Shown: positions 6,416-60,599, counted from the stretch's first letter. The stretch: 64,000 nucleotides of DNA from Alphaproteobacteria bacterium (GCA_045597005.1 JAZODJ010000028.1:12768-76767); one strand, 5' to 3'. The notes: generated by a model not told the origin, from the letters alone. Translations and numbers: made by a program.

Positions 6416-7128
6416 CAGATAAACCAAAATTTTACGGACGTCGCCAAGGACGCAAAATACGCAAAGCAAAATCCGGATTATTGGAAAATTTTTTACCAAA
6501 GATTTCCATAACTCCCCAATCTGTAATTTCAAAAGATATTTTCAATTGCAATGTATCTGAAATATACATGGAAATAGGCTTTGGTGATGGCGACCACCTC
6601 GCCGGACAATCACTAAAAAATCCGCATATCGGTTTTATAGGAGCAGAAGTCTTCAAAAACGGAGTAGCAAATTTACTATCTATAATCACAGGTATCAAAA
6701 AAAACAGTGATATATCCGAAGAAATTAAAATACTTTCCCCCCGTAGTGATAATATACGTGTTTGGAGTGATGATGTCAGAATTCTTTTCAAGCAAATTCC
6801 TGACGAATTTCTAAGCAAAATATTTTTATTATTTCCTGACCCTTGGCCCAAAAAACGCCATGCATCACGCCGTTTTATAAATCCTGATAATTTAAAAGAA
6901 ATCGCTCGTATACTAAAAAAAGGCGGCATATTACGTGTTGCTACTGATCATAAAGTCTACAAAAGTTGGACTTTACGCACACTTGCAAACGACCCCAATT
7001 TTCGTTGGACAGCTAGATCTAGTGATGATTGGCGTAATCCACCGACTGATTGGGTTGAAACTAAATATCAACGCAAAGCCATCCGCGAAGGACGCAAACC
7101 GGTATTTTTAGATTTTGAACGTCTTTAA
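6406..7128 (+). CDS. trmB: tRNA (guanine46-N7)-methyltransferase
   Basis: 240 aa; EIGFGDGDHL, FPDPWPKKRH, TDHKVY motifs. Confidence 0.9.
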   Translation: MLLTDKPKFYGRRQGRKIRKAKSGLLENFLPKISITPQSVISKDIFNCNVSEIYMEIGFGDGDHLAGQSLKNPHIGFIGAEVFKNGVANLLSIITGIKKNSDISEEIKILSPRSDNIRVWSDDVRILFKQIPDEFLSKIFLLFPDPWPKKRHASRRFINPDNLKEIARILKKGGILRVATDHKVYKSWTLRTLANDPNFRWTARSSDDWRNPPTDWVETKYQRKAIREGRKPVFLDFERL

Positions 7129-39232: not shown

Positions 39233-39307
39233 GGCCGGTTGGCAGAGTGGCTCATGCAGAGGACTGCAAATCCTTGTACATCGGTTCGATTCCGGTACCG
39301 GCCTCCA
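39233..39307 (+). tRNA. tRNA-Cys (GCA)
   Basis: 75 nt cloverleaf folded by hand: acceptor GGCCGGT/ACCGGCC, anticodon loop CTGCAAA, T-loop GGTTCGATTCC, encoded CCA. Confidence 0.95.
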
Positions 39308-39322
39308 AATATACCGTATTAT

Positions 39323-39397
39323 TCCGGCTTAGCTCAGCGGTAGAGCAATCGGCTGTTAACCGATTGGTCGCCTGTTCGAATCAGGCAGCCGGAGCCA
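39323..39397 (+). tRNA. tRNA-Asn (GTT)
   Basis: 75 nt: TCCGGCTTAGCTCAGCGGTAGAGC D-arm, anticodon stem ATCGG/CCGAT with loop CTGTTAA, T-arm CCTGTTCGAATCAGG, encoded CCA. Confidence 0.95.
39376..39397 (+). repeat. left copy of 22-nt direct repeat (tRNA-Asn 3' end; attL-like)
   Basis: TCGAATCAGGCAGCCGGAGCCA, identical to 47431..47452. Confidence 0.85.
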
Positions 39398-39405
39398 ACA
39401 TCCAG

Positions 39406-39440
39406 ATAAAGTCTTGTTTTTGCAAGACTTTATTTTTTTT
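39406..39440 (+). terminator. intrinsic terminator after tRNA-Asn
   Basis: 11-bp stem ATAAAGTCTTG/CAAGACTTTAT (39406..39416 / 39423..39433), then T7. Confidence 0.75.
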
Positions 39441-39583
39441 ATAAAATCGTAAAATCAAAAATTGCTAATAACTTCTGCTAATAAATTTCCTAAGTATGAG
39501 CCAACAAAAGGACACATACTGAACAGCCCAAATGGCAAACATCAATACATCAAAGCTAATGTTGATGAGTAAAAATCTCATCA

Positions 39584-41197
39584 TTAAAAATGTAAAGATA
39601 ATCCTATATTAAAACTATCTGAATATTTAGCATCGCTATAATGGAAATAATCAAAATAAACTTCATTATTTTCAGATACTTTATAACCAATATAAAAATT
39701 GTATTTTTCATCAAAACCTATATTATTTTGTTTGGCATTAAAATATTTTTCATAAGAAGTGATAATTTTTATATTATCACTAATTTTTGAAATAGCACCA
39801 ATTTGGGGAGAAATGTAAAAATTTGAGTAATCATCATAATGATAGCCAATTTTAGGTAAAAAATATACAGAAGTTGTTGAGATTTTTTTACTTACACCTA
39901 AACCAAACTCAAAAATAGGTTTTAATTCTGTTTCTTCATTGAATAAGTCATTTTCAAAACCTAAACGAAAATATTTAGAAAAACTATTTGTTGATGAATA
40001 ATCAATAATTGATTTCATCTTTAATATATCAATTTTATCAATGGTCAGTTTTTTATCCGCATTGAAGTAATTGAATGATACATCAAACATTTTGCTTTCT
40101 AAATCAGAAAAATAAGCATCTGAAATATCCCTAATATCCTGATAGACAGGACTAATATTCATATTAGTAATATTATTAGATAAATCTTGTGAAATTGACA
40201 ATCTTGTCGGTTTGGGAGCATTACCTATATAATTTAATCCAAATTTTTCTATTACTGTTCTTTGTGTTTCCGTCGGCTCTATGCTTATGTCTGATATTTT
40301 ATTATCGTCATGTAATTTTTGGATGTACTCAACAGGAGTAACAAATGGCTTTATTGTTTCCATGGAAAAATCTTTGTTTGCAACTTTTAATATACTTATT
40401 AAAGCCGTGTTACAATTATGAGATAATAAAGAATATTTTATATTTTTTTCTTTTAATTCCCATAAATGTTCTTTTAATCGTACTTTATCTTCATCATTTA
40501 AATATAATTTAAATTCCCATAATGAGCGTTGTTCTTTGTTTAAATATTCTGATGCTTTTTCTACATATGGCGATAGGATATAAACACCATCAATACCTGT
40601 TGTTAATACATCAATGTAAAATTTTATATTATTGGCATTATTAAAAGCCGCAAAATAACTAAACGCATGACTACGAGCGTTGCCATCAATTCTCAAAAAA
40701 GTATGTCCCATCATAGAAGATGGACTAAAATTATTTTCTGATGCAAAAACTACATATACATTTTCAAATAATACATTGTTTTTATATTCTTCATATTCCT
40801 TACAATGTGGTTTAGGAAATAATTCTTTGGATAAATTTAATGATTTAACAATATAATTAAACCTTGCAGGATACATACATATAGTATGTTTATCATTTAA
40901 TGATGCTTCATTTATTAATGATCTAAGTGTTGCTTCATATTCAGATTTTGGATTTATATATCCATCTGATGATAGGAAAAAATCGCTATTTGAATTTATA
41001 ACGCTTTTCCTACCATCATAATGTAATATATTTTTCCATTCTAATGAATCATAAAACTCTGCAGTTGTTTTTTTACTTAATTCTTCATATGTATAATTAG
41101 CATTAGCTGTATTACCATAAAGAAGAAAAAATAGCAAAAAACTACTTAATAGAGCATGAATCTTTACGATATACTGGAACAATGATATTATTATCAT
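39584..41197 (-). CDS. DUF4105 / Lnb N-terminal-domain-like protein with outer-membrane-type C-terminus
   Basis: 543-aa ORF (to 41215); signal-like ALLSSFLLFFLLYGNTANA; SSMMGHTFLRIDG motif, which I associate with DUF4105 from memory; ends IGLSLHF (terminal aromatic, beta-barrel-like); start uncertain, ATG 41197 overlaps the upstream gene by 56 nt. Confidence 0.55.
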   Translation of the reverse strand: MIIISLFQYIVKIHALLSSFLLFFLLYGNTANANYTYEELSKKTTAEFYDSLEWKNILHYDGRKSVINSNSDFFLSSDGYINPKSEYEATLRSLINEASLNDKHTICMYPARFNYIVKSLNLSKELFPKPHCKEYEEYKNNVLFENVYVVFASENNFSPSSMMGHTFLRIDGNARSHAFSYFAAFNNANNIKFYIDVLTTGIDGVYILSPYVEKASEYLNKEQRSLWEFKLYLNDEDKVRLKEHLWELKEKNIKYSLLSHNCNTALISILKVANKDFSMETIKPFVTPVEYIQKLHDDNKISDISIEPTETQRTVIEKFGLNYIGNAPKPTRLSISQDLSNNITNMNISPVYQDIRDISDAYFSDLESKMFDVSFNYFNADKKLTIDKIDILKMKSIIDYSSTNSFSKYFRLGFENDLFNEETELKPIFEFGLGVSKKISTTSVYFLPKIGYHYDDYSNFYISPQIGAISKISDNIKIITSYEKYFNAKQNNIGFDEKYNFYIGYKVSENNEVYFDYFHYSDAKYSDSFNIGLSLHF

Positions 41198-41537
41198 ATT
41201 TCCACATCGCTCCATTGGATATATCTGTTGTTGTTCCTGTCCATAAATTGAAATAATTAGCGAGGAAGAACATGTCCAAATGATTATCAGCCATTGTTAC
41301 TGTTTGTCTATGACATTTATCTTCTTTTACAGATATTGTTAAAGGTGTATTTCCCTTTGATACAGATATAACTGTTGGAAGAGTTACTGATTGCATACCA
41401 TCTGTGCTATTAATATCTGCTTTTACAGTATCTCCATTAGATGTCATAACATTAATATTTTGGGTTGTTCCATTAAACATCGTTGCACATGATGATAAAA
41501 CAAACATTATGCTACATATAAAACTTATCTTTTTCAT
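41142..41537 (-). CDS. lipoprotein (paralog A)
   Basis: 131 aa; lipobox VLSS-C; shares NINVMTS-G, TISV/TIQVK-GKC and TTD---GAMWKYD with the neighbouring gene. Confidence 0.7.
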   Translation of the reverse strand: MKKISFICSIMFVLSSCATMFNGTTQNINVMTSNGDTVKADINSTDGMQSVTLPTVISVSKGNTPLTISVKEDKCHRQTVTMADNHLDMFFLANYFNLWTGTTTDISNGAMWKYDNNIIVPVYRKDSCSIK

Positions 41538-41554
41538 AGGCAGTCCTTATATGT

Positions 41555-41950
41555 TTATTTTAAGCATTGTGTTTTTTTATTTACATTTACAACGACAGTA
41601 GAATCGTATTTCCACATTGCACCAGTTGTAGAATCTGTTGTAGAACCCAAAATGCCACCTGTTAAAAGATTACCCCAAAACCATGGCTCAATGCTTGATT
41701 TTGCCACAGATACAGTTTCACTATTACATTTTCCATCTTTTACCTGTATTGTTATATCTTGGCTATCTTTTTGAACAGAAATAAGTTGAGGCAATTTCGT
41801 TTCTCTCATTCCATTTTTTGTAAAAATGGTTGCTTCTACTTCACTACCGTCACTTGTCATGACATTAATATTTTGAGTTTTTCCTTTTATTATTGAGGCA
41901 CAACCTGATAAAATCGTTGCTGTCATCAATAGTGCTACTAATTTTTTCAT
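41555..41950 (-). CDS. lipoprotein (paralog B)
   Basis: 131 aa; lipobox ILSG-C; AAGGAAG SD 8 nt upstream; tandem paralog of 41142..41537. Confidence 0.7.
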   Translation of the reverse strand: MKKLVALLMTATILSGCASIIKGKTQNINVMTSDGSEVEATIFTKNGMRETKLPQLISVQKDSQDITIQVKDGKCNSETVSVAKSSIEPWFWGNLLTGGILGSTTDSTTGAMWKYDSTVVVNVNKKTQCLK

Positions 41951-41982
41951 ATGATTTAACTTCCTTTTCTTTAATTGTAATT

Positions 41983-42293
41983 AAAAAGAAAACCACCTTC
42001 TTAAAGGTGGTCGGAGAGTTCATCAATCATATTGCTTTAAATGATTCTTTTAGCCTTTAAAGTCAAAAAACTTCTGAACATACGCCAAAAGCTCCCCGAC
42101 CAAAAGAGTTTGAAACTATTTTAATCGGGGATATATCTATTATTAGCCTAATAAACAGCTAACAATATGACGATGTTATATCCTAACACCGAAAGCAATA
42201 AGAGCCGATGAAAGCTCCGTACCACATTGGTACTAAGTGTAAAATGTATTCCACACCTGACATCATATTAAAAAGCTGATAGTTAAAATGCAA
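41983..42293 (-). promoter_or_regulatory. promoter plus ~270-nt structured leader with terminator/antiterminator upstream of the lipoprotein operon
   Basis: Minus strand: TTGCAT-17 nt-TAATAT (complement of 42288..42293 and 42265..42270); terminator ACCACCUU/AAGGUGGU (41992..42011) plus UUUUCUUUUU; competing 10-bp helix (42092..42101 with 42009..42018). Confidence 0.45.
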
Positions 42294-42385
42294 TTAAAAT
42301 CATATAATTATTGGAAAATTATTTTGCTTTTTTATGTAAATTTGATTACACTGATAGCATACTGCATTTATGATGGTTTTATAAA

Positions 42386-42598
42386 ATGAAAAAAATATTC
42401 TTTGGGTTGATTTTGTTGGGAATTGTACTACCTGTTTTGGCTGCGGATAGCCCCATAGTAGTATTAAATGTTAAAAGAATGATATATCACAGTCCCAGTT
42501 GTCAGTGGGCGCATAGATGTACTAAAAATTGTATAAAAACAACCAAACAAGAAGCTATTGAACACGGAGCCAGACCTTGCAAGGTCTGTGGAGGTTAA
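42386..42598 (+). CDS. small secreted Ada-like zinc-binding-domain protein
   Basis: 70 aa; signal peptide MKKIFFGLILLGIVLPVLAA; YHSPSCQW...C...EA...GARPCKVC resembles the Ada metal-binding / sunset-type domain. Confidence 0.55.
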   Translation: MKKIFFGLILLGIVLPVLAADSPIVVLNVKRMIYHSPSCQWAHRCTKNCIKTTKQEAIEHGARPCKVCGG

Positions 42599-43782
42599 TA
42601 CTCTTCCTCAACTTGTTCCAAAGAACTTTCAACTAATTTTGCCAAATTTTCATTTATGTTACTTTTCATTTTTTCATATAAACTTTGTTGTGTATTAATA
42701 TATTCTTGATTTTCATTAAAAATGAAACTTTTTAATGTATTAAAACGTATCATTCGGTTAGTTTGTTTATTTAATCCTTCTGATGAAGCTAATTTATATT
42801 TTTTTATATCATCAAAAATTCCTTTCTCAGCAGGAGTTACACTATTGTCAATATTCATATCATTATCGAATATTCCATACATTTTTACAAAATCTTCCAA
42901 TCTATGTGTTATTACATCCGAAAACGTAATGTTTTCTCGCATCATATAGAAAAGTATGGAAAATACCGTATATAATTGGGATTTTTTTTGCAAAAACTTT
43001 ATCAGTATAGGTGAACCTAATAAAAATTCAATTTGAGTTGTTGCATTTATAATAGCTTGACGATCAATATCAGCATCATTATAATTCATTTTTAAATCTT
43101 CATATGCTCTATTTAAAGCTTTTTGATCACTTTGATCTATGATACCAGATCTAAACAAAAGAATAAGAGATGCACAAAATTCAACATCTTTCATTCTTTT
43201 GACATCAGCATTATTAAATAATTTATACTTCTCCCAAATAGATAAATCGGAAAGTTCTCGAGCCAATGCAGCAAACTCTCCAGATAGACTATTTCGTTTT
43301 TCTTGACTATTTAGGTTATAATCCGTAAGATTTAACCGTCTGAACATATTCACAATTTCATCTCTTGTAACTTTTTCATTTATATCTACAATCATTAATT
43401 GATAATTCCAGACTTCTTTTTTTGTTCCATCATCTAAATCTCTAAAATAACGATCCCCCCATTTTTCTTTTGATGTATCTTCTAATAAGGCATTTTTCTT
43501 TAATTTAAATTCATTGTTTACAAACTCAGTAATTGTCTTTATCCTTTGTTGTCCATCAACAATATGTGTAATGGACTCTCCTGTTTCTGGATTTGTATCA
43601 GCTTTCCATAAAAACAATTCTGGTATAATAAAGTTTAACAGAATTGTTTCAATTAATCTAATTTTATCATTTTCGTTCCAAACAGAGCGACGTTGATATG
43701 AATCATCCACAATCAGAGATTCTTCTGTAAACATATTATAAATATCACTAATAGTTTTTCGATTATTAGAAAATTGAAACAT
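42595..43782 (-). CDS. DUF262 (ParB/GmrS-like N-terminal domain) protein lacking a recognisable DUF1524/HNH domain
   Basis: 395 aa; SYQRRSVW and IVDGQQR signatures; no His-Me finger motif seen in the C-terminal half. Confidence 0.85.
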   Translation of the reverse strand: MFQFSNNRKTISDIYNMFTEESLIVDDSYQRRSVWNENDKIRLIETILLNFIIPELFLWKADTNPETGESITHIVDGQQRIKTITEFVNNEFKLKKNALLEDTSKEKWGDRYFRDLDDGTKKEVWNYQLMIVDINEKVTRDEIVNMFRRLNLTDYNLNSQEKRNSLSGEFAALARELSDLSIWEKYKLFNNADVKRMKDVEFCASLILLFRSGIIDQSDQKALNRAYEDLKMNYNDADIDRQAIINATTQIEFLLGSPILIKFLQKKSQLYTVFSILFYMMRENITFSDVITHRLEDFVKMYGIFDNDMNIDNSVTPAEKGIFDDIKKYKLASSEGLNKQTNRMIRFNTLKSFIFNENQEYINTQQSLYEKMKSNINENLAKLVESSLEQVEEEY

Positions 43783-43783
43783 A

Positions 43784-44398
43784 CTATACTCCTTTGGGTT
43801 CTTTTATAGTTTTACAAGCCTTTACAATTCCAGATAATTGATATTCTTCAAGGTCTTCCCAACTTCGATAAATTCTGTAATTTATAGGATGCATTACAGA
43901 TAGTTTATCTTGTAATGATTTGTTTGTTGGATCTTTCATCTTTTGCCATACTGTACGAATATCTTCTATTCCTGTTAAAAATTTTTCATCAATATATCCT
44001 CTAAAAATAGATCTTGTAAGATTCACATAAAAGTATTCTTGATATACTCGGAAAGCCTTTTTCTTTCTTAGTTGCTCCCAATAATATGAATATAATTTTT
44101 CTGAAACTAAAGCAATATCTATATCAGACGAATCTTCCATAAACGGTTTTAGACATTTTAACGGTGATAAACTATATCCGAGTTTTGCACTTCCTACAAG
44201 TTGAGATGAATGAAAACTTATATTAAAATTTTTTGATATAATTTCTTTAAAACAATCTAAACGATCTAATATTTCATCTGATGGAACTTTTAAATATTCA
44301 TTAAAATACCAATTATATGATTTAACTATATGTTTAAGATAGAAATCTTTTGCATCCATAGACAATAAATCGTTTTTTATATCTGTTAAACATACCAT
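43784..44398 (-). CDS. hypothetical protein, putative Pol-beta-fold nucleotidyltransferase
   Basis: 204 aa; QLVGSAKLGYS ... SSDIDIALVS fits hG[GS]...DxD of minimal NTases; start ATG shares one base with the MTase stop (TAATG). Confidence 0.5.
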   Translation of the reverse strand: MVCLTDIKNDLLSMDAKDFYLKHIVKSYNWYFNEYLKVPSDEILDRLDCFKEIISKNFNISFHSSQLVGSAKLGYSLSPLKCLKPFMEDSSDIDIALVSEKLYSYYWEQLRKKKAFRVYQEYFYVNLTRSIFRGYIDEKFLTGIEDIRTVWQKMKDPTNKSLQDKLSVMHPINYRIYRSWEDLEEYQLSGIVKACKTIKEPKGV

Positions 44399-45492
44399 TA
44401 TGCAGCCTTTCTTGTGTCTTCATAATATATATTTAAATAATCAAAAATATCTTGTGCAATTCCCTTTCCTAAAAGATATGGAACACCATTACCTATCATT
44501 TTAAACTTAAGGGATAGAGGAATATTATTAGGCAAACAAAATTCTTTTGGCAAAGATTGAATAGAAAGAGCCTCAGCTATGCTAATTCTGCGTAGTTCAT
44601 ATGGATGCAAGTGAACTTCATTATTTCCATATGCCGATGTTGGTGCGTATCTCCAACGATGTAGCCTCTTAAATGACTTTCGAGAAACGTCTCCTTCTTG
44701 TATTGTAAGGTATTTTTGCAAATTTTTTACTTTAAATATATCGTTTGCATTTTGGTGTTTTTTTACATCATTCTTAATAAACCAGTGCTCAACTGTTAAT
44801 TCTTCAATAATATTAGTTGGCTTTTCTATATATCCATTTTCATTAAACTCATTCAAGGTTGGCCAATTAAGTAATTTTATATCTTTTAAATTAAACTTTT
44901 TATGCTGACCAATAGAAAATTTACAACAATTTTGAAATATATTTCTATTGAAGCCAATAAGAAACAACCTATCTCTATATTGAGGAACGCCATATTCTAG
45001 GGCATTTTCTATGGAATCAAATAATTCATAGCCATTTTCATCTAAACGTTTTTTTATTTTCTCATAAAAAATTTTATGTTTACTAGTTTGATACAATCCT
45101 TTTACATTCTCTAAAACAAAAAAGTCTGGCCGACGTTTAATAATCAGATTTACATAAACATCTGTTAACCTTCCATTTTCACCTTCAACACCTTTGTTTT
45201 TTCCTGCTGTCGAAAAATCTGGACAAGGTGGTCCCCCTATGAATCCTACAAAATCCGAATCTGTTTTTTCTGAAAAAGTTTTGTTCCATACTTCATCTTT
45301 TAGATATTCTTCCACACTAAGGCTAGAATATCTATTTTCTGCTAATATTTTCTTTCGTGTGCTCTTATATGTTTTTAGAAAAACACTATTATACTCATTA
45401 ACAAATGAGATATTAAAGCCAGCTTTCTCAAACCCTAGGTCTAAAATTCCCAACCCTGAGAAAAAAGAATATACTTCCGCTTTCACTTTCAA
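44398..45492 (-). CDS. DNA (cytosine-5)-methyltransferase
   Basis: FSGLGILDLG (motif I), GGPPCPDFS (IV), FVLENVKGL (VI), QYRDRLFLIG (VIII), GNGVP (X); TTG 45492 or GTG 45486 start. Confidence 0.9.
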   Translation of the reverse strand: MKVKAEVYSFFSGLGILDLGFEKAGFNISFVNEYNSVFLKTYKSTRKKILAENRYSSLSVEEYLKDEVWNKTFSEKTDSDFVGFIGGPPCPDFSTAGKNKGVEGENGRLTDVYVNLIIKRRPDFFVLENVKGLYQTSKHKIFYEKIKKRLDENGYELFDSIENALEYGVPQYRDRLFLIGFNRNIFQNCCKFSIGQHKKFNLKDIKLLNWPTLNEFNENGYIEKPTNIIEELTVEHWFIKNDVKKHQNANDIFKVKNLQKYLTIQEGDVSRKSFKRLHRWRYAPTSAYGNNEVHLHPYELRRISIAEALSIQSLPKEFCLPNNIPLSLKFKMIGNGVPYLLGKGIAQDIFDYLNIYYEDTRKAA

Positions 45493-45602
45493 CCTTATTC
45501 AAAAAAAACTCTATAGTAAAATTTGCAAATATGTAGAATATTTTTATTCTATAGAGAGACCTTTTGCAAGTATATAATGGAATTAATGCAATTTTAATTT
45601 AT

Positions 45603-46919
45603 TCACTCCATATCCAGCAGCCACTCAAGCACATTCATTCGTTTAATACCGTTGTTTTCGCCAGAACCAAAGTCCATTGTCAGCAAAAATTTAGGGTAAT
45701 TATCTTCTATAGCTTCAAGTGGAGCAAGCTCTCGTTCTAATATGTCTGTTCCCAACACATTCAATGCAACTTGATAATATTCAACTATTCCGCCACTTTT
45801 TTTAGCAACAAAATCAACCTCAATATTTTTACCACCTTTGACTATTTTACCTACTGAAACTTGATAACCACGTCTTAACAGCTCTAAGTAAACCACATTT
45901 TCTAAAATGTGTCCTTGATCCATATCTTTGATACCCAACAATGCCGTACGTAGCCCTATATCCGCAACATAATATTTAGCATTACTATCAAGATATTGTT
46001 TGCCTTTGATATCATAACGGTCGCATTTATAAAGCAAAAAGCTATCTAATAACCCTTGCACCATTGTATCTATAGTTGGCACTGATATTTTATGTCCGCC
46101 AGCATTTAAACCTTTTTCTATGTTGCGGATAGATGTTTCATTACCGATATTATCAAACATATATTTTACCACGGCATCAAGCTTATTAGTATCTGCGATA
46201 TTAAAACGTTTAACTATATCCTTTTGAATTGTATTCAAATAAACAGTATCTAGCAAATAATCGCTTATTAGTTGTTTATCATAAACTAAGTTTAAGGTTT
46301 GAGGGAATCCACTTTCAGTTATATAATGAGAATAAACTGCCATTGGGTTATGCAAGCCTTCTATCTCATTTTTAGTTCTAGCATAAATGCCCGCAAACAT
46401 TGAATATGCAGAAAAATATTCCTTAAAAGAAAATGGTTGCATTTTAATTTCAATATATCTGCCACCTAACGAATTAGCCAAATCGCTGGAAAACATATAG
46501 GCATTTGAACCTGTCAAATACAAGTCAACATTATTTTGTAATCTTAACGCATTAGCGACTTTATCCCAATCTTTCAATAACTGTATTTCATCAATAAAGA
46601 CATAATTCATTTTTTTGGGGTTAAGAATTGATAAAACATAGTCCAATAACTTATTATAACCGACTAAAAAGTTTTCCTTATCATAAGAAAGACCGATTTT
46701 GTTAGTCTGTACCAAATCTTCCAGATTTATATTTACAATCTGGCTATCGTCAGCTTGTCTATTAGTGATTAAATCAAATTGATAAAGATAAAACAATTTG
46801 GATTTACCGCAACGTCTTACCCCTGTGATTATTTTTATTAAATCACTTTGCCCTTGCCATTTTTTCAGTTGCTCTATATATTGTGGTCTACCGACTATTC
46901 TTTCAGATGCACTTTGCAT
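45603..46919 (-). CDS. AAA_14/DUF4143-type ATPase
   Basis: 438 aa; Walker A GVRRCGKS, Walker B NYVFIDEIQ, C-terminal EVDFVAKK region as in DUF4143 proteins. Confidence 0.8.
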   Translation of the reverse strand: MQSASERIVGRPQYIEQLKKWQGQSDLIKIITGVRRCGKSKLFYLYQFDLITNRQADDSQIVNINLEDLVQTNKIGLSYDKENFLVGYNKLLDYVLSILNPKKMNYVFIDEIQLLKDWDKVANALRLQNNVDLYLTGSNAYMFSSDLANSLGGRYIEIKMQPFSFKEYFSAYSMFAGIYARTKNEIEGLHNPMAVYSHYITESGFPQTLNLVYDKQLISDYLLDTVYLNTIQKDIVKRFNIADTNKLDAVVKYMFDNIGNETSIRNIEKGLNAGGHKISVPTIDTMVQGLLDSFLLYKCDRYDIKGKQYLDSNAKYYVADIGLRTALLGIKDMDQGHILENVVYLELLRRGYQVSVGKIVKGGKNIEVDFVAKKSGGIVEYYQVALNVLGTDILERELAPLEAIEDNYPKFLLTMDFGSGENNGIKRMNVLEWLLDME

Positions 46920-47430
46920 TGTTTATTCTCCTTAAGCTATATGTTAATTATATTTAACAAAAAATAAAAAATCAAGTATTTTGTAAAATACATTTAACAA
47001 AATCTCAATACTATCGTTTTTCGTAAAACAGAATTAACAATCAAATTGTTCCGCATTTTTTCGCACACGTAAACAGATTTGTCTTAAAACTGCATAATTT
47101 ATCGTCAAAAATCAATTTCTGCACTCAAAACGCAAGTAATCAAAGGCAAACAGCATATGAGTAGTCAAGTATTCCTTGACTACTGATTAAAATACGGAAA
47201 AACGGGGGATTTTACTTTTTGCAGTTATTCGGAAATTCCAAACAGTTCAATTTTTACGCCCACAATTCCTTAAAACCATTATTGACAGCCGATTACAGAT
47301 GATTTATGTTATTAGCAGTGCTAATAACTTTTGCTAATACTTTCGAAATTTAGGTCGGAGCCAGTATTTTGATAAGTTATTGATTTTACATAACAACAAG
47401 GCTTGTTTTATGAAAATATTTCTGGATTTG

Positions 47431-53739: not shown

Positions 53740-55089
53740 TTACTTTCTCTTTCTAGATGCAAGCTGAGCCTTACGGATCAAACCTTCATATTGATAAGCA
53801 ATCAAATGAGACTGTATCTGTCCGACAAAATCCATAGTAACCTGAACCACGATAAGCAATGTTGTTCCACCCAAAATAAACGGAACAGAAAGTTTGCTTA
53901 TCAATATCTCCGGCAATATACACAACCCGACCAAATACACAGCACCCAAAACAGTCAATCGCGTAATAACATAATCCAGATACTCTGCCGTATTTTTACC
54001 CGGTCTTATACCTGCCACAAAACCACCGTGTTTTTTCAAATTATCGGCTGTTTCTTCCGGATTAAACACAATTGCGGTATAAAAGAATGCAAAAAACGCA
54101 ATCAAAAAGGCATACAAAGCCAAATACAAAGGCTGACCGTGTCCGAGCATTTGAGACAAACTCTGAACCCAAGCCGGACCGTTTTCTGCAGTCAAATTAG
54201 CAACAGTTATCGGCAACAACAACAAAGAACTTGCAAAAATCGGAGGAATAACTCCTGTCGGGTTAATCTTCAACGGCAAATGTGAGCTTTCTGCAGCACC
54301 CATTCTTCCCATAACCTGACGCTTTGGATATTGAATAATGATTTTACGTTGAGCTCTTTCAACCAATATAATCAAATAAACCAAAGCCACAGCCATAACC
54401 AACAACATCAAAATAACACCGGCAGACATCGAACCGACACGCCCCAATTCAAAAGTTTGTGCCAAAGCCGCCGGAATATTAGCGATAATACCAACCGTAA
54501 TAATTAATGAAGAACCATTACCTACACCACGAGCCGTAATTTGTTCACCCAACCAAACAATAAACATTGTACCGCCGACAAGCGAAATAATGGTTGTAAA
54601 CTTAAATACAAACCCCGGCAACAAAACTGCAGACACTCCGGTTGATCCACTCATACTTTCCAAGCCTACAGCAATACCATAACCTTGAATAATTGTAATC
54701 AAAACAGTCAAATAACGAGTATATTGCGTAATTTTACGATGTCCGGCCTCGCCTTCTTTTTTCAAAGATTGCAAAGAAGGAATAATCGACTGTCCCAACT
54801 GAACAATAATTGATGCCGAAATATAAGGCATAATATTTAAAGCAAAAATAGTCATACGTTCCAAGGCACCGCCGGCAAACATATTAAACATCCCCAACAA
54901 TCCGCCTGAATTTTGAGCAAACAATTCAGCCACCACTGTCGGATCTATCCCCGGCAAAGGCACAAATGTACCAACTCTGAACACAATCAAAGCCAACACG
55001 GTAAACCACAATCTTTTCTTTAATTCTTCAGCTTTTCCAAAGGCTGACATATCAACATTTGCAGCCATTTTTTCTGCTAACGAAACCAT
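53740..55089 (-). CDS. secY: preprotein translocase subunit SecY
   Basis: 449 aa, 10 TM segments; LNIMPYISASIIVQL, GEQITARGVGNGSSLII. Confidence 0.95.
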   Translation of the reverse strand: MVSLAEKMAANVDMSAFGKAEELKKRLWFTVLALIVFRVGTFVPLPGIDPTVVAELFAQNSGGLLGMFNMFAGGALERMTIFALNIMPYISASIIVQLGQSIIPSLQSLKKEGEAGHRKITQYTRYLTVLITIIQGYGIAVGLESMSGSTGVSAVLLPGFVFKFTTIISLVGGTMFIVWLGEQITARGVGNGSSLIITVGIIANIPAALAQTFELGRVGSMSAGVILMLLVMAVALVYLIILVERAQRKIIIQYPKRQVMGRMGAAESSHLPLKINPTGVIPPIFASSLLLLPITVANLTAENGPAWVQSLSQMLGHGQPLYLALYAFLIAFFAFFYTAIVFNPEETADNLKKHGGFVAGIRPGKNTAEYLDYVITRLTVLGAVYLVGLCILPEILISKLSVPFILGGTTLLIVVQVTMDFVGQIQSHLIAYQYEGLIRKAQLASRKRK

Positions 55090-55303
55090 TTTATTATCCT
55101 TATATTTTCATTTAAAACAAAACATCAGACTATTATCTAGCCATTTTAAGTCAAAATATTAATACAACAAAAAATTTTTTATGCAACTAATTTAATTTTA
55201 TCCAATAAAAAATCTCCTCATTAAATCTATTTTAACTTTTCATCTGTTAAAAGCATAAATTAGATGAGTCTATGTATCAAAAATGGCGATTCTTTTTAGA
55301 CAC

Positions 55304-55384
55304 TGTCATTACGATTCAGCTTTAGCTGACGAAGCAGTCAACCACTTCTCTGTCACTGCGAGGAGTGACAACGACGAAGCAGTC
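55304..55384. repeat. tandem GC-rich imperfect repeat (two ~35-45-nt units)
   Basis: TGTCATTACGA...GACGAAGCAGTC (55304..55339) and TGTCACTGCGAGGAGTGACAACGACGAAGCAGTC (55351..55384); 12-mer GACGAAGCAGTC exact at 55328 and 55373. Confidence 0.6.
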
Positions 55385-55478
55385 CATAAAAGGAAGCCAT
55401 GAAACAAAATGTCATCCCTTTTTGATGAGGCATTCCTCATCAAAATCAAGGGATCTCATCAAAAAAAACAAAAAAGTT

Positions 55479-55507
55479 TTGCTAGTGACGTCAAAATGTG
55501 ATATAAT
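55479..55507 (+). promoter_or_regulatory. near-consensus promoter of the autotransporter gene
   Basis: TTGCTA (55479..55484), 17 nt, TATAAT (55502..55507) with TG at the extended -10 position. Confidence 0.55.
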
Positions 55508-55545
55508 AAAAGATATTTTAAGGACTAAAAAAGGAGGATATCCTC

Positions 55546-55611
55546 ATGTTAAAACAGAATGTTAACGTCGTAACCCGTTGTATTTCCCTTAAAAATCGTG
55601 GGGGGGGGTAA
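55546..55611 (+). other. orphaned 5' end of the autotransporter gene (start codon and n-region of signal peptide, closed by a stop after the G9 tract)
   Basis: AGGAGG 55532..55537, ATG 55546, MLKQNVNVVTRCISLKNRGGG then TAA 55609..55611. Confidence 0.7.
55600..55608 (+). repeat. homopolymeric G9 tract (candidate slipped-strand phase-variation switch)
   Basis: Nine consecutive G read directly; lies between the ATG frame and the frame of the 990-aa ORF. Confidence 0.9.
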
Positions 55612-55709
55612 AGCCTCTTTTATATAGTCTTGCGCTTAGCACTGCTCTTGTTTCTCCTACCTTTGCCGAAATTACACCTCCTGAAATCAATGTTGAATAC
55701 CTAAATAAT

Positions 55710-58682
55710 TTGACCAAAGACAAAGTACTCTGGGAAGAAGCAACAGAAACTGACACCGACACAATTTCAATTAATGGCAACTATTATAAATACACCGACA
55801 TCAACACTGAAACATCAACCAACCCCGATGATATAACTGATAATTATATCAGACATCATGTTAACGGATCTGAAAACGATTACTCCTACACCGCTACCGG
55901 TGGGGCTATTTTTATAACGAGCGATACAAACAATATAACCGGAAACTTTATTGATAATCATGCCGAAGCTGGTCGTGTTTCTTCTATTTGGGATTATAAC
56001 CTTTGGGATTTTTATTCTTGGGGTGGTGCTCTTTATAATGGTGGCACCATAAATAACATTACCGGTAGTTTCTTTAATAATAGAGCTATTGCATATGATG
56101 AGGGCAGTTGGGGCGGCGCTATTTTTAACTGGGGTGTTATTAACAATATTTCCGGTGACTTTATCGGAAACTCTGCTGACACCGGAGGAGCTATTTTTAA
56201 TGCTGATAATGGAATTATTAACAATATAACAGGTAATTTTATTAATAATATAGTTTATAACGAAGGTGGCGCTATTGCTAATGGAGGTTCCGATGGCACT
56301 GACCATGGTGCTTTTGGCGGTGGCACAATAACATTAACCAACAGTAATTTTTATAACAACTCTGCCTTCCAAGGAGGAGCTATCTTTAATGGTTCTAACT
56401 GGGATAGTAATGCCGGTGGCATTATAAATATCAAAGCCGACAACGGCGAAAGTATTTTCTCCGGAAATAAGGAAGAATACTATGATTATGATACTGGTGA
56501 AACCATAAAAAAATCCAACGCTATCCATTCTTATGGCGGTGAGATTAATCTCGAAGCAACCAACAATGGTATCATTCATTTTGATGACGGAATTGTCTTA
56601 AACAACACCTCTTTCAACATCAATGGCGATGATAGCGGCAGTATTACATTTAACGGATTAATTGAAGCAACAGATTCAACTATTATCCAATCTTCTTCAA
56701 ATGTTTTCTTTGGTTCCGGTTCTCCTATAAAAGGTTATGCTTATAACCTTATTGCCGGCACTCTTAACAATGCAATCGTTGATGATGGCGGAACTTTAAC
56801 AGCAACCGATGCTGCCAAGATTATTAATCTGTTAGCTAAAAGCGGTTCAACAATCGACCTTGCTTCTAACACCAATCTCAGTGGCGATATCCGTTTTGAT
56901 GTTGATGCAACATTGCAAGGCAACTTTGATTATAACAAAATCTTTGATGAGATTGTTGAAGAAACCGGCTCTTTAACTTTAGAGGGTGGTATTAACGCTG
57001 CTTTAAGCCAAGATTCGTTAGTAAACACCTCCGAAAACAAAAGTTTAGTATTAAGTAGCGGAAACTTTGAAGTCGGTTCCGGTGTTCAAGAAGTATCGGG
57101 ATGGAAAGAACTTAATGTAACCGATAATGCAACCGTTAAATTAGCCGGTGATATTGCATTGGCTGAAACTCAAAACAAAATGAACCTTCTAAGCGGTTCA
57201 ACTTTGGACTTAGCCGGAAACTCTCCTTTGATAGCCACAATAGATGGGTCTGTTAATAATGATGGCAATATGACATTTACTCACGCAACAGATGGTGCTG
57301 ATGACGTTATTACAATCAAAGGAAACTATAAAGCATATAAAAATGCTATGATGACAATAGATGTTGATGTTGCCAATAACACTGCTGATATTTTAACAAT
57401 TGAAGGAGATGTCATCGGACGTACTCGTGTAGTTATCAATCCTATTAATGACAATGGTGGTACTGCCACCATGACCGATAAAGCATTGTTTGTTGAAGCT
57501 CCAAATGATGATACCTCAACCGGTGCTTATTTTGATGTATATCGTATGGTAGCAGATGCACGTGTTTGGAACAGTTATTACGAAAATAACAAATGGTACG
57601 TAGGAACAAGTAACGTTATTGCTAATTCACAAAGCGGTTATGGTAATACCGATGATGATGAAGAACTGGTGTTAGGTGGTAACAATAGCGGAAATAATGA
57701 TAATACTGTTAATATTACTCAACCTAAACCGCAAGTTGTATCCGAAGCAATTGCCTATATGAGCCTGCCAAGAATAGGTTTGGAACAAACTAAAGACCTT
57801 ATGAGGGTTGTTTCCAACAAAGTTACATCATCTAAAATCATGAGCGGACGTTGCGGAATGGGCGAATGTAACTATGACGGACAAGCCGTAAACGGAGCAT
57901 GGATAGATTTGGGACACAAAAAGTCTGAGATTGATGCTCCGGTAGCGGTTGAGGCTAAGATAAATGCCGTAGATTTAGGATTTGATATTCAAAAAGACTT
58001 GCATAATCGTTTAGGTATATTTGCATCATATCGCCAAGGCGAATATGAGCTATCCGGCGACGGCGAAGACTATTATGCCAAAGAAGGGGCTGATATCGAT
58101 ATCGACAGTTGGATACTTGGTTTGTATCATCGTTATGATTATGGCAGATTATGGACTATGTCATCAATTTATGGCGGTATCCAAAAAGTTGATATGAGTA
58201 CTGATGACGGAGTAAGTTCTGATACTGACGGTATACAGTTTGGCGGAAGTGTTGAGGCGGGATTGGTATTTGAACCGCAAAAACGATTAACCATCGAACC
58301 GAGTATCAGATTAGGCTATAACTTCATCAAATATGATGATATGTCTGATAGTTATGGCAAGACGGCTGAGTTTGACAATGTTCAAAATATAGAGGCTGAA
58401 GCCGGTGTTAAGGTTGAAAAGACCTTCTTCCACAACAACCGCCGTGTAATCAGTAAGATTTATGTTAAACCGAGTATTATCAAAAACTTTGGTAAAGGTG
58501 ATGTCAACATAACCTCGCTTGATACGGTTGAAGGACTTGAAAACGAAACCTTAATCCGAGGCGAGATTGGCGGAAGCTTTAACTTTGGCAACGGATGGAG
58601 CGGATTTGGCTCACTGGGTTATACCTATGGTTCTGATTACAACGCAACTGACTTTAACCTCGGGGTTAATTATAATTGGTAA
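55710..58682 (+). CDS. Pmp-repeat autotransporter (passenger plus C-terminal beta-barrel); as-called ORF, true gene probably 55546..58682 with a frameshift at G9
   Basis: 990 aa; six GGA[IL] ... FxxN repeat pairs in the first ~230 aa; C-terminal ~280 aa alternating beta-strand pattern ending GVNYNW; frame open upstream to 55593 encoding the signal-peptide core. Confidence 0.85.
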   Translation: MTKDKVLWEEATETDTDTISINGNYYKYTDINTETSTNPDDITDNYIRHHVNGSENDYSYTATGGAIFITSDTNNITGNFIDNHAEAGRVSSIWDYNLWDFYSWGGALYNGGTINNITGSFFNNRAIAYDEGSWGGAIFNWGVINNISGDFIGNSADTGGAIFNADNGIINNITGNFINNIVYNEGGAIANGGSDGTDHGAFGGGTITLTNSNFYNNSAFQGGAIFNGSNWDSNAGGIINIKADNGESIFSGNKEEYYDYDTGETIKKSNAIHSYGGEINLEATNNGIIHFDDGIVLNNTSFNINGDDSGSITFNGLIEATDSTIIQSSSNVFFGSGSPIKGYAYNLIAGTLNNAIVDDGGTLTATDAAKIINLLAKSGSTIDLASNTNLSGDIRFDVDATLQGNFDYNKIFDEIVEETGSLTLEGGINAALSQDSLVNTSENKSLVLSSGNFEVGSGVQEVSGWKELNVTDNATVKLAGDIALAETQNKMNLLSGSTLDLAGNSPLIATIDGSVNNDGNMTFTHATDGADDVITIKGNYKAYKNAMMTIDVDVANNTADILTIEGDVIGRTRVVINPINDNGGTATMTDKALFVEAPNDDTSTGAYFDVYRMVADARVWNSYYENNKWYVGTSNVIANSQSGYGNTDDDEELVLGGNNSGNNDNTVNITQPKPQVVSEAIAYMSLPRIGLEQTKDLMRVVSNKVTSSKIMSGRCGMGECNYDGQAVNGAWIDLGHKKSEIDAPVAVEAKINAVDLGFDIQKDLHNRLGIFASYRQGEYELSGDGEDYYAKEGADIDIDSWILGLYHRYDYGRLWTMSSIYGGIQKVDMSTDDGVSSDTDGIQFGGSVEAGLVFEPQKRLTIEPSIRLGYNFIKYDDMSDSYGKTAEFDNVQNIEAEAGVKVEKTFFHNNRRVISKIYVKPSIIKNFGKGDVNITSLDTVEGLENETLIRGEIGGSFNFGNGWSGFGSLGYTYGSDYNATDFNLGVNYNW

Positions 58683-58688
58683 GTACGT

Positions 58689-58720
58689 AAAAAGCTCTCT
58701 TTTCAAAAGAGAGCTTTTTT
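58689..58720. terminator. bidirectional intrinsic terminator (autotransporter / ftsH)
   Basis: AAAAGCTCTCTTTT CAAA AGAGAGCTTTTTT. Confidence 0.75.
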
Positions 58721-58733
58721 GCTGACAACTATT

Positions 58734-60599
58734 CTACAACTCAGGTATCGAAGCCTTTGTTCTTTTTTCTTCAGCCACAGGAGCATCACCTGATTTGCTA
58801 ATCTCTTTTCCGGCGAGTAAATCCTTAATTTCTTCACCGGTCAATGTTTCATATTCCATCAACGCCTCTGAAAGCTTTTCCCAGTCTTCTTTATGTTCTT
58901 GCAAAAGCTTTTTAGCTCCTTCATAACCACCAACAACCAACGATTTTATTTCAGCATCAACCAATTTGGCTGTTTCTTCACTCATATTTTTACTCTGAGT
59001 TACCGATTTTCCTAAAAATACTTCTCCCGTATTTTCGGCATATAAAACAGGACCGAGTTTCTCGCTCATCCCCCATTCCGTAACCATAGAACGAGCCAAA
59101 TTCGTTGCTGCCGCAATATCCGATGACGCACCCGAAGTAATTTTTTTCGAACCGAATTTTAATTCCTCGGCAACACGTCCTCCCATCATTATAATCAACC
59201 GAGAAAGCATCTTAGTCTTAGAATATGAATATTGATCTTTTTCCGGCAACTGCTGTACCATACCCAAAGCACGTCCACGCGGAATAATGGTTGCCTTATG
59301 AATAGGATCTGTCTCTTCTACAAACAATGAACAAATTGCATGTCCGGCTTCATGATATGCCGTCAGCTTTTTCTCATTTTCATCCATAGCCATAGACTTA
59401 CGCTCTGCTCCCATCAAAACCTTATCTTTGGCTTCATCAAAATCTTTTGATGTTACCTTTGTCTTATTTTTTCTGGCAGCCAACAACGCCGCTTCGTTTA
59501 CCAAATTGGCTAAATCAGCTCCCGAAAACCCCGGAGTCCCTCGTGCAATAACCGACAAGTTTACATCTTTAGCCAATGGAACCTTTTTAACGTGAACTTT
59601 CAAAATTTCTTCACGTCCTTTCTTATCCGGATTCGTAACAGTAACCTGCCTATCAAAACGTCCGGGACGCAACAATGCCGGATCCAAAACATCGGGTCTG
59701 TTGGTTGCTGCTATTAAAATAACATTTTCTTTTTCTTCAAAACCATCCATTTCAACCAACAGTTGGTTTAATGTCTGCTCGCGCTCATCATTACCACCGC
59801 CAAGACCTGCTCCACGATGACGTCCGACAGCATCTATCTCATCAATAAAAAGCAAACACGGTGCATTTTTTTTGGCTTGTGCAAACATATCCCTAACACG
59901 CGATGCACCAACACCGACAAACATTTCAACAAAATCTGAACCGGAAATCGAAAAAAACGGCACATCAGCTTCGCCGGCAACAGCTTTTGCCAGCAAGGTT
60001 TTACCGGGTCCCGGATGCCCCACCATCAAAACACCTTTCGGTATCTTACCGCCCAGTCTTTGAAACTTCATTGGATCTTTCAAAAAGTCGATAACTTCTT
60101 CCAACTCTTGTTTAGCTTCATCAGCACCGGCAACATCTGCAAAAGTAATTTTTTTGGTATTTTCAATCAATCTTGCACGAGACTTTCCAAAACTCATTGC
60201 CTTATTATTTCCGGCATTTGCTTGACGCATAAAAAATACCCAAACACCAATAAGCAACAACATCGGAAACCACGAAATAAACATTCCCCACAAATTATCT
60301 CCGGTTGTATCTTCCGGAGCAGCCGTCACTTTAACATCATTCTTACGCAAGTTTTCAACCATTGTCGGATCATACGGAGCATATGTATAAAATTTTGTTC
60401 CGTTAGTAGCCGTACCATTAATACTTGCACCACTTATTGTAACTTCTGAAATTTGTTTATTTTCAACTTTATCCATAAAATCAGAAAACGCCAATTTTTC
60501 GGCACCTGTTTTTGCAACTCCACCACCGACAACACTTGTTATCAATGATAACGCAACAAAAACACCAAGCCAAATTAAAAAACTTTTTCCCATTCCCAT
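58734..60599 (-). CDS. ftsH: ATP-dependent zinc metalloprotease FtsH
   Basis: 621 aa; [26 protein letters not shown] zinc site. Confidence 0.95.

Follow-up and report, generated by a model that had tools for sequence, protein, structure and literature searches.

A probable phase-variable autotransporter gene, out of frame at a G9 tract, in an uncultured alphaproteobacterial lineage

In this study, we analysed a stretch of 64,000 nucleotides from an Alphaproteobacteria bacterium (GCA_045597005.1, JAZODJ010000028.1:12768-76767; hereafter the window), and focused on an autotransporter gene that occupies positions 55546 to 58682 of the plus strand. We found that the start codon and the signal peptide of this gene are held in different reading frames by a run of nine G (G9). 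Comparison with related loci suggests that the locus is probably a phase-variable gene driven by slippage in this tract, and that it is in the OFF state at the G9 of the present assembly. The first-pass annotation of the window had proposed such a contingency gene; the proposal is supported by tracts of G8 to G11 at one and the same junction, three of ten of them in frame, in open reading frames (ORFs) that are otherwise intact.

The features on which the argument is built are the following.

55479..55507, plus strand: promoter-like site of the sigma-70 type (TTGCTA-17-TATAAT), with 10 of 12 consensus matches and a TG before the -10 hexamer
55532..55537, plus strand: Shine-Dalgarno (SD) sequence AGGAGG, read directly, 8 nt 5' of the ATG at 55546
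55546..55611, plus strand: leader ORF MLKQNVNVVTRCISLKNRGGG, 21 codons followed by TAA at 55609..55611
55598..55600, plus strand: GTG overlapping the first G of the tract, in the main frame only at G8, where it would give MGGVKPLL...
55600..55608, plus strand: poly-G tract G9, the proposed slippage site, with the leader TAA directly 3' of it
55608..55667, plus strand: remainder of the predicted signal peptide in the main frame (VK, hydrophobic core PLLYSLALSTALVS, then PTFA), delimited by hydropathy and the -3/-1 rule
55668..57740, plus strand: passenger, a predicted beta-solenoid with Pmp-like repeats (motifs, AlphaFold2 model, Foldseek)
55710..55712, plus strand: TTG start of the public gene call P0001 (990 aa), 3' of the signal peptide
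57741..57830, plus strand: alpha-helical linker before the barrel (model helices at residues 717-731 and 736-746)
57888..58682, plus strand: C-terminal beta-barrel translocator, ending ...GVNYNW and a stop codon (PF03797, TIGR01414, Foldseek)

The promoter-like site, the AGGAGG, the ATG at 55546, the 21-codon leader, its TAA at 55609 and the G9 tract all hold in the sequence at the places given by the first-pass annotation. The TTGCTA-17-TATAAT site scores highest on the plus strand within 55000..58900, and its -35 TTG and -10 region are kept across 11 aligned paralog or ortholog leaders, consistent with its predicted role as the promoter. The AGGAGG is likewise kept in L001, L005 and L012 to L014, and GAGGAG or AGGAGG is found in L007, L008 and L002 (L numbers are our handles for homologous loci). 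Beyond the leader, the main frame is open from 55593, reads KSWGGVKPLLYSLALSTALVSPTFA/EITPP and runs to a stop codon ending at 58682; it comprises 1,029 codons from 55593 and 1,023 codons after the tract, compared with 990 aa as annotated. The first ATG, GTG or TTG in this frame is the TTG at 55710, which agrees with the earlier claim that no start codon lies before it. The hydrophobic core of the signal peptide and its TFA/E site are thus left without an in-frame start codon at the assembled G9.

The frame logic was computed for tract lengths from G6 to G12. One additional G (G10) fuses the leader to the main frame in a protein of 1,045 aa, and the loss of two (G7) does so in one of 1,044 aa, as the first-pass annotation had predicted. 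The highest 9-residue Kyte-Doolittle hydropathy is 1.88, at SLALSTALV, and the -3/-1 rule points to cleavage after TFA, before EITPP; an xFA motif followed by polar residues is kept in paralogs. In the ON state, the leader would form an extended, positively charged n-region of the signal peptide. The reconstructed n-region is long, contains Cys and has a charge of +5. Homologous leaders share one frame with the core of the signal peptide in L007, L008, L014, L012/13, L002, L015 to L019 and L025. Because such in-frame long alleles exist, for example MLKQNVNIITRCISLKNSWGGVKPLLYSL... with G9 in L014, we regard the leader as a genuine N-terminal coding extension. An N-terminal word-based protein search gave two matches and an exhaustive phmmer search recovered more; by both kinds of search, a Cys-containing n-region of the form xxT[RDY]C[IN]xxxK is common in the protein family, and the junction behind it is G-rich in only a subset. 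An ESPR-type extended signal peptide was considered and rejected, as the reconstructed 70-aa N-terminus had no Pfam match at E <= 10.

The identity of the protein was examined with domain profiles and a structural model. PF03797 matched at 3.3e-26 (93 bits; cut-off 26) and TIGR01414 at 4.6e-26. The AlphaFold2 model, built with 40 homologs and numbered from 55593, has a mean pLDDT (predicted local distance difference test) of 81.6, and consists of a solenoid of short strands at about 100-670, helices at 717-746 and a barrel at 766-1028. In Foldseek searches, the barrel matched NalP, EstA, AIDA-I, EspP and BrkA. Target-normalised template modelling scores were 0.79 for NalP and 0.85-0.87 for the BrkA beta-domains, with a range of 0.73-0.87 over NalP, BrkA and EspP. 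The passenger matched that of Ag43, while a search of PDB sequences with the family profile gave no match. The barrel, the helical linker and the beta-helical passenger of a type Va protein are all found, and a start-attached Sec signal peptide is absent at G9 and restored only by G10 or G7. Taken together, profiles and model indicate that the ORF is a classical (type Va) autotransporter with Pmp-like character, which bears out the earlier identification. An adhesin-like function appears plausible for it.

The likeness to Pmp proteins has its limits. The whole ORF carries six GGA[ILV] and nine FxxN motifs, and PF02415 (Chlam_PMP) matches are on record for several homologs. On the window protein itself, PF02415 reached only 13.1 bits (E = 0.12), below its cut-off of 20.6, and the Pfam matches over the passenger included no Pmp middle domain, even at E <= 10. 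By these profiles, the window protein is not demonstrably a member of the Pmp family.

The tract stands out in its surroundings. The window has a G+C content of 35.7%, and G9 is the sole G or C run longer than six in its 64 kb; after it come four C6 runs, among them the one at 6737..6742 that was named earlier as the runner-up. About 0.002 G runs of nine or more are expected in the window (pG = 0.15), and about 0.035 C runs. The tract codes for Gly-Gly(-Gly) by GGG, which is the least used Gly codon (8.9%) in the 31 other window ORFs of at least 250 aa, and in the same ORFs GGG-GGG is used for only 1 of 62 Gly-Gly pairs. Since GGG is so rare singly and in pairs, coding need does not explain a pure homopolymer. 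The aligned leaders have a mean column identity of 59%, and all wobble positions nevertheless stay G in ten diverged loci, which speaks for maintenance of the homopolymer as such. One A-to-G change would turn the GGGGAGGGG of distant relatives into G9, and either state could be ancestral.

The closest genome found is a metagenome-assembled genome (MAG), GCA_045637985.1 (Alphaproteobacteria bacterium, SGB_6346). The window and its contig JAZUAM010000026.1 have a common gene order: gyrA, rpoA, rpsK, rpsM, adk, secY, autotransporter, ftsH, dsbA-like, phoU-like and PHO4. Nucleotide identity in the flanks is 95.6-95.9% (secY-adk; ftsH-dsbA-phoU), and the barrel-coding 3' end reaches the same level. 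Because the gene order is common and the flanks are 95.6-95.9% identical, the window comes from a sister strain or species of the uncultured SGB_6346 lineage. The passengers of the two orthologs are only 67% identical at the protein level. Such divergence against flanks of about 96% is the signature of a surface under diversifying selection, probably driven by host or phage.

A comparison of tract length among related genomes had been proposed beforehand, and we carried it out on ten loci: the window, its syntenic ortholog in the sister MAG, four paralogs of the same MAG and four loci on other metagenome contigs. Their tracts are as follows.

Window: G9, out of frame (in frame at G10 or G7)
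L001, syntenic ortholog of the sister MAG: G8, out of frame (in frame at G9), an ATG abutting the tract
L004, paralog of the sister MAG: G10, out of frame (in frame at G9)
L005, paralog of the sister MAG: G8, out of frame (in frame at G9)
L007, paralog of the sister MAG: G9, in frame, 3,218 aa
L008, paralog of the sister MAG: G8, in frame
L014, other metagenome: G9, in frame, beginning MLKQNVNIITRCISLKNSWGGVKPLLYSL...
L021, other metagenome: G11, out of frame (in frame at G10)
L022, other metagenome: G9, out of frame (in frame at G8)
L023, other metagenome: G9, out of frame (in frame at G8)

The lengths vary as anticipated, with G8 in the syntenic ortholog. All ten uninterrupted tracts lie at the junction of leader and hydrophobic core; three of them put the leader and the main ORF in one frame, and seven do not. 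In every out-of-frame allele, the frame 3' of the tract is open to a stop codon or to the contig end, and no other lesion was found in the ten loci. The ortholog L001 illustrates the pattern: its promoter, SD and leader ATG are as in the window, followed by ...tcATG, G8 and TAAAG, so that its leader is also a 21-codon ORF ending at the equivalent TAA, and its public gene call starts at the ATG abutting the tract (MGGVKPLL...). An uninterrupted, frame-switching tract near the 5' end, whose length differs between loci in genes that are otherwise intact, is what is found here, and these are the sequence-level features of a contingency locus.

Interrupted tracts behave differently. G4AG4 (L002, L015, L016 to L019), G5AG3 (L012/L013) and G2AG6 (L025) are all in frame, and among relatives with interrupted or short tracts the count is 5/6 in frame. 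In L024 (252..340; ENA ERZ27298645), a degenerate G4 (ccggggcg) leaves the leader out of frame with the signal-peptide core; a larger deletion of tract sequence has probably fixed this allele in the OFF state, and it would then be a true pseudogene. The G4AG4 form was also considered as an internal SD (GGAGG), and was rejected because no in-frame start lies downstream. Across about 93 kb of sister-MAG sequence, six G or C runs reach a length of at least seven, and five of these sit at the leader junction.

Several observations on these relatives stand apart from the frame count. The sixth run of the sister MAG is a C8 (G8 on the other strand) at 2413..2420 of L011, on contig JAZUAM010000009.1, where it forms apparently in-frame GGG in a radA-like gene (...GGDPGIGKSTLL...); this run would be a useful internal control for rates of homopolymer error and slippage. 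The in-frame L007 (535..10191) is a giant paralog. Several other paralogs (L003, L009 to L011) stop at contig breaks inside near-identical barrel-coding 3' ends, and because they do so, the family exceeds the five leaders seen and fragments the assemblies.

The codon that follows the tract is also conserved. GTA follows the tract, or its interrupted equivalent, in all leaders read except L021 (GCA) and the degenerate L024: it is found at 55608..55610 in the window and in L001, L002, L004, L005, L007, L008, L012 to L019, L022, L023 and L025. GTA accounts for 23% of the Val codons in window genes. With GTA in this place, a leader that is one G short meets a TAA or TAG right after the tract. Common descent may account for this conservation, as may selection for rapid termination of the OFF peptide or the presence of a recoding site.

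A second start codon beside the tract was not part of the earlier description. The GTG at 55598..55600 has no SD upstream, and its use as a start is speculative; its counterpart, an ATG abutting the tract, is the annotated start of the ortholog L001. Most simply, such an ATG or GTG is a by-product of Ser-Trp (TCA TGG) or Arg (CGT G) codons.

Based on these data, we propose the following mechanism. Slipped-strand mispairing at replication would change the tract by one G at a time in either direction; slippage, its rate and its reversibility are inferred. At G10 or G7, the SD-driven ATG at 55546 would be in frame, and the precursor would be exported by Sec and inserted into the outer membrane (ON). 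At G9, translation from this ATG would end at the TAA at 55609 after 21 codons, and no exportable protein would be made (OFF). At G8, the GTG at 55598 would come into frame and might allow weak expression with a short leader, dependent on ribosomes already translating the leader. The family has at least five of these genes in a genome, each carrying a tract of its own, and a population could therefore display different combinations of surface proteins.

Some points weigh against this interpretation. The contrast between uninterrupted and interrupted tracts is qualitative only, with a Fisher p of 0.19 over the first 11 loci. The ON:OFF count is biased towards OFF alleles, since L021 to L023 came to light by way of gene calls whose start coincides with the tract or lies behind it. 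Every sequence used derives from a metagenome assembly or a MAG, where homopolymers are error-prone, and a concern about sequencing through poly-G has been raised for the tracts of pmp genes (PMC4488443, PMC3323650).

One alternative is that G9 is a homopolymer miscall, in which the true tract is G10, or a mixed population was collapsed to G9 by the assembler, and the gene is intact. The related records are themselves MAGs or metagenome contigs, poly-G frameshifts in pmp genes can differ between sequencing efforts on one strain (PMC3323650), and next-generation sequencing can be biased at these tracts (PMC4488443). We nevertheless consider a miscall unlikely. Among the ten uninterrupted tracts, which come from independent assemblies, seven are out of frame, compared with 5/6 interrupted or short tracts in frame, and the frame breaks at uninterrupted tracts and at no interrupted one. 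The lengths, from G8 to G11, extend beyond plus or minus one around a single value. Coding homopolymers of A8 and T9 leave the housekeeping ORFs of the window visibly unbroken. An error in this single call would leave the family-wide pattern in place, and that pattern would still point to a hypermutable tract. It is quite improbable, too, that the locus is a fixed pseudogene, in which a one-off frameshift left the gene to decay and the tract is incidental. The dead-looking L024, with its degenerate G4 and shifted frame, would be an example of such an outcome, and many poly-G autotransporter genes of Campylobacter are inactivated in a lineage-specific manner that the authors of the study read as decay rather than phase variation (PMC7168839). 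In the window, by contrast, a frame of 1,023 codons is open, and promoter, SD and leader are intact and conserved. The other out-of-frame alleles are likewise intact, pure G is kept against codon bias, and in-frame and out-of-frame paralogs coexist in one genome.

Two further alternatives concern translation. Recoding could supply full-length protein at a low level in the one-G-short state, so that OFF would be leaky or the gene constitutively weak, either by a -1 slip of tRNA-Gly in the P site on GGG with TAA in the A site, or by slippage of RNA polymerase. A -1 slip at the last GGG would yield exactly the G10 product, the GTA after the tract in nearly all leaders makes the leader stop abut the tract, and the window, L001 and L005 are one-G-short OFF alleles. 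We hold this to be very unlikely: the fold of 55515..55660 is no better than that of shuffled sequences (z = -0.35), leaving no stimulatory structure evident, four alleles (L004, L021 to L023) are one G too long, a state that a slip would not help, and the GTA may simply reflect common descent. In addition, the documented cases of efficient transcriptional slippage are mostly on A/T runs. The fold of 55515..55660 likewise gives no support for a structured leader or frameshift stimulator around the SD and tract. A riboswitch or other known leader RNA was rejected, because Rfam returned nothing at the locus and two tRNAs elsewhere in the window. The remaining alternative takes the public annotation as correct, with translation from the TTG at 55710, where P0001 begins, and a 990-aa product that functions without a Sec signal peptide. 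Type Va autotransporters need Sec export. No SD precedes this TTG, and the N-terminus of P0001 is acidic and lacks a hydrophobic segment (highest 9-residue hydropathy -0.28). Furthermore, the sequence upstream codes for the conserved signal-peptide core that is translated in homologs. We therefore find a functional start at 55710 scarcely credible; the TTG is almost certainly an artefact of the gene caller. The public gene calls of relatives likewise begin at or inside the signal peptide. The 990-aa annotation omits the signal peptide and so obscures the true structure of the gene.

A more elaborate form of the phase-variation model can be imagined, which we regard as an outside possibility. 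The tract could exert graded control over three states: a long Cys-containing leader, a minimal signal peptide (MGGVKPLL...) or no export. The basis for this idea is the second start that abuts the tract in the other frame, a GTG at 55598 in the window and an ATG in L001, L014 and L021. Some -1 recoding, at a low level, might be added to this when the tract is one G short, at a stop set by the nearly always conserved GTA. If true, the amount or the route of export would be under graded control across a whole autotransporter family of an uncultured gut lineage.

The region upstream of the gene has features of its own.

55409..55459, plus strand: inverted repeat with the core TTTTGATGAGG-cat-TCCTCATCAAAA (TTTTGATGAGGcatTCCTCATCAAAA), about 20 nt upstream of the -35 hexamer

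The RNA fold of this repeat is -23.4 kcal/mol (z = -6.9 against shuffled sequences); L001 and L005 have the repeat in their upstream regions too, and on the plus strand it lacks a T-tail. It could be an operator, or an insulator or terminator between the divergent promoters of secY and the autotransporter, and is a possible member of the system. The autotransporter is divergent from secY (53740..55089, minus strand; intergenic region 55090..55545) and convergent with ftsH, and the same arrangement is found in the sister MAG. Here, secY opens a cluster in which adk comes next, with rpsM, rpsK and rpoA following in the sister contig, and no rplO or other ribosomal-protein genes lie upstream of it.

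We also observed that window 55207..55476 is 93% identical to the region upstream of the paralog L005 (5499..5767). Within it, a stretch of 100 nt (55310..55409) with repeated GACGAAGCAG motifs and a GTCACT/AGTGAC hairpin is missing from the syntenic L001. Because the upstream region resembles that of L005, and the passenger is 67% identical against flanks of about 96%, gene conversion or mosaic exchange among paralogs is suggested.

Elsewhere in the window, the region 39233..47000 has a low GC content of 28-32%, compared with about 36%, and adjoins two tRNA genes (39233..39394). It holds the following genes and looks like a tRNA-adjacent defence island.

42595..43782, minus strand: restriction protein of the GmrSD_N type
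44398..45492, minus strand: C-5 cytosine methylase
45603..46919, minus strand: AAA_14/DUF4143 ATPase

The proposed switch can be placed beside systems known from other bacteria. The pmp genes of Chlamydia (the C. pneumoniae pmpG family, the C. psittaci pmps and C. trachomatis pmpG) are alike in encoding paralogous type Va autotransporters with GGA(I/L/V) and FxxN repeats. Several of them contain a long coding poly-G, with frameshifts that differ between strains or sequencing efforts (PMC4488443, PMC3323650). They differ in belonging to Chlamydiota, whereas the present loci come from alphaproteobacterial MAGs; on the window protein, Chlam_PMP stays below threshold and a Pmp middle domain was not detected in the searches described above. 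In the present family, the tract is always at the junction of n-region and hydrophobic core. The capD gene of Campylobacter (capA-type) has an intragenic poly-G at a position conserved in the genus, whose length sets the gene intact or inactive, and G9 is the commonest length in Campylobacter, a figure that refers to capC tracts upstream of the gene (PMC7168839). Inactivation in that genus was largely ascribed to lineage-specific decay (PMC7168839). In contrast to the family described here, with at least five genes per genome, Campylobacter has one or few, and no extended leader.

The opa genes of Neisseria are a multi-copy outer-membrane family that switches independently through CTCTT repeats in the coding region of the leader peptide, resulting in combinatorial display. 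N. gonorrhoeae has 11 phase-variable opa genes (PMC11868660). The family logic and the position of the repeat in the leader coding region are alike; opa differs in its pentanucleotide repeat and small 8-stranded barrels, as opposed to the homopolymer and autotransporters found here. In lic1 of Haemophilus influenzae, the number of repeats places different starts in frame, leading to strong, weak or no expression. The leader ATG and the tract-abutting GTG or ATG in two frames recall this arrangement, with the second start a candidate that lacks an SD.

The mechanism itself is thus already known, is textbook knowledge in other bacteria and would not surprise a specialist. We found no published work on autotransporters or phase variation in this lineage. 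A scan of JGI metagenomes with a gapped DNA pattern across the tract found nothing, and a protein-based JGI scan returned only a C-terminal fragment. The added interest is that several genes with such probable switches would occur together in an uncultured, low-GC lineage of Alphaproteobacteria of the commensal or gut type, known only from metagenomes. This lineage appears to carry a multi-gene set of independently switchable surface autotransporters, and would provide a data point outside the classic pathogens.

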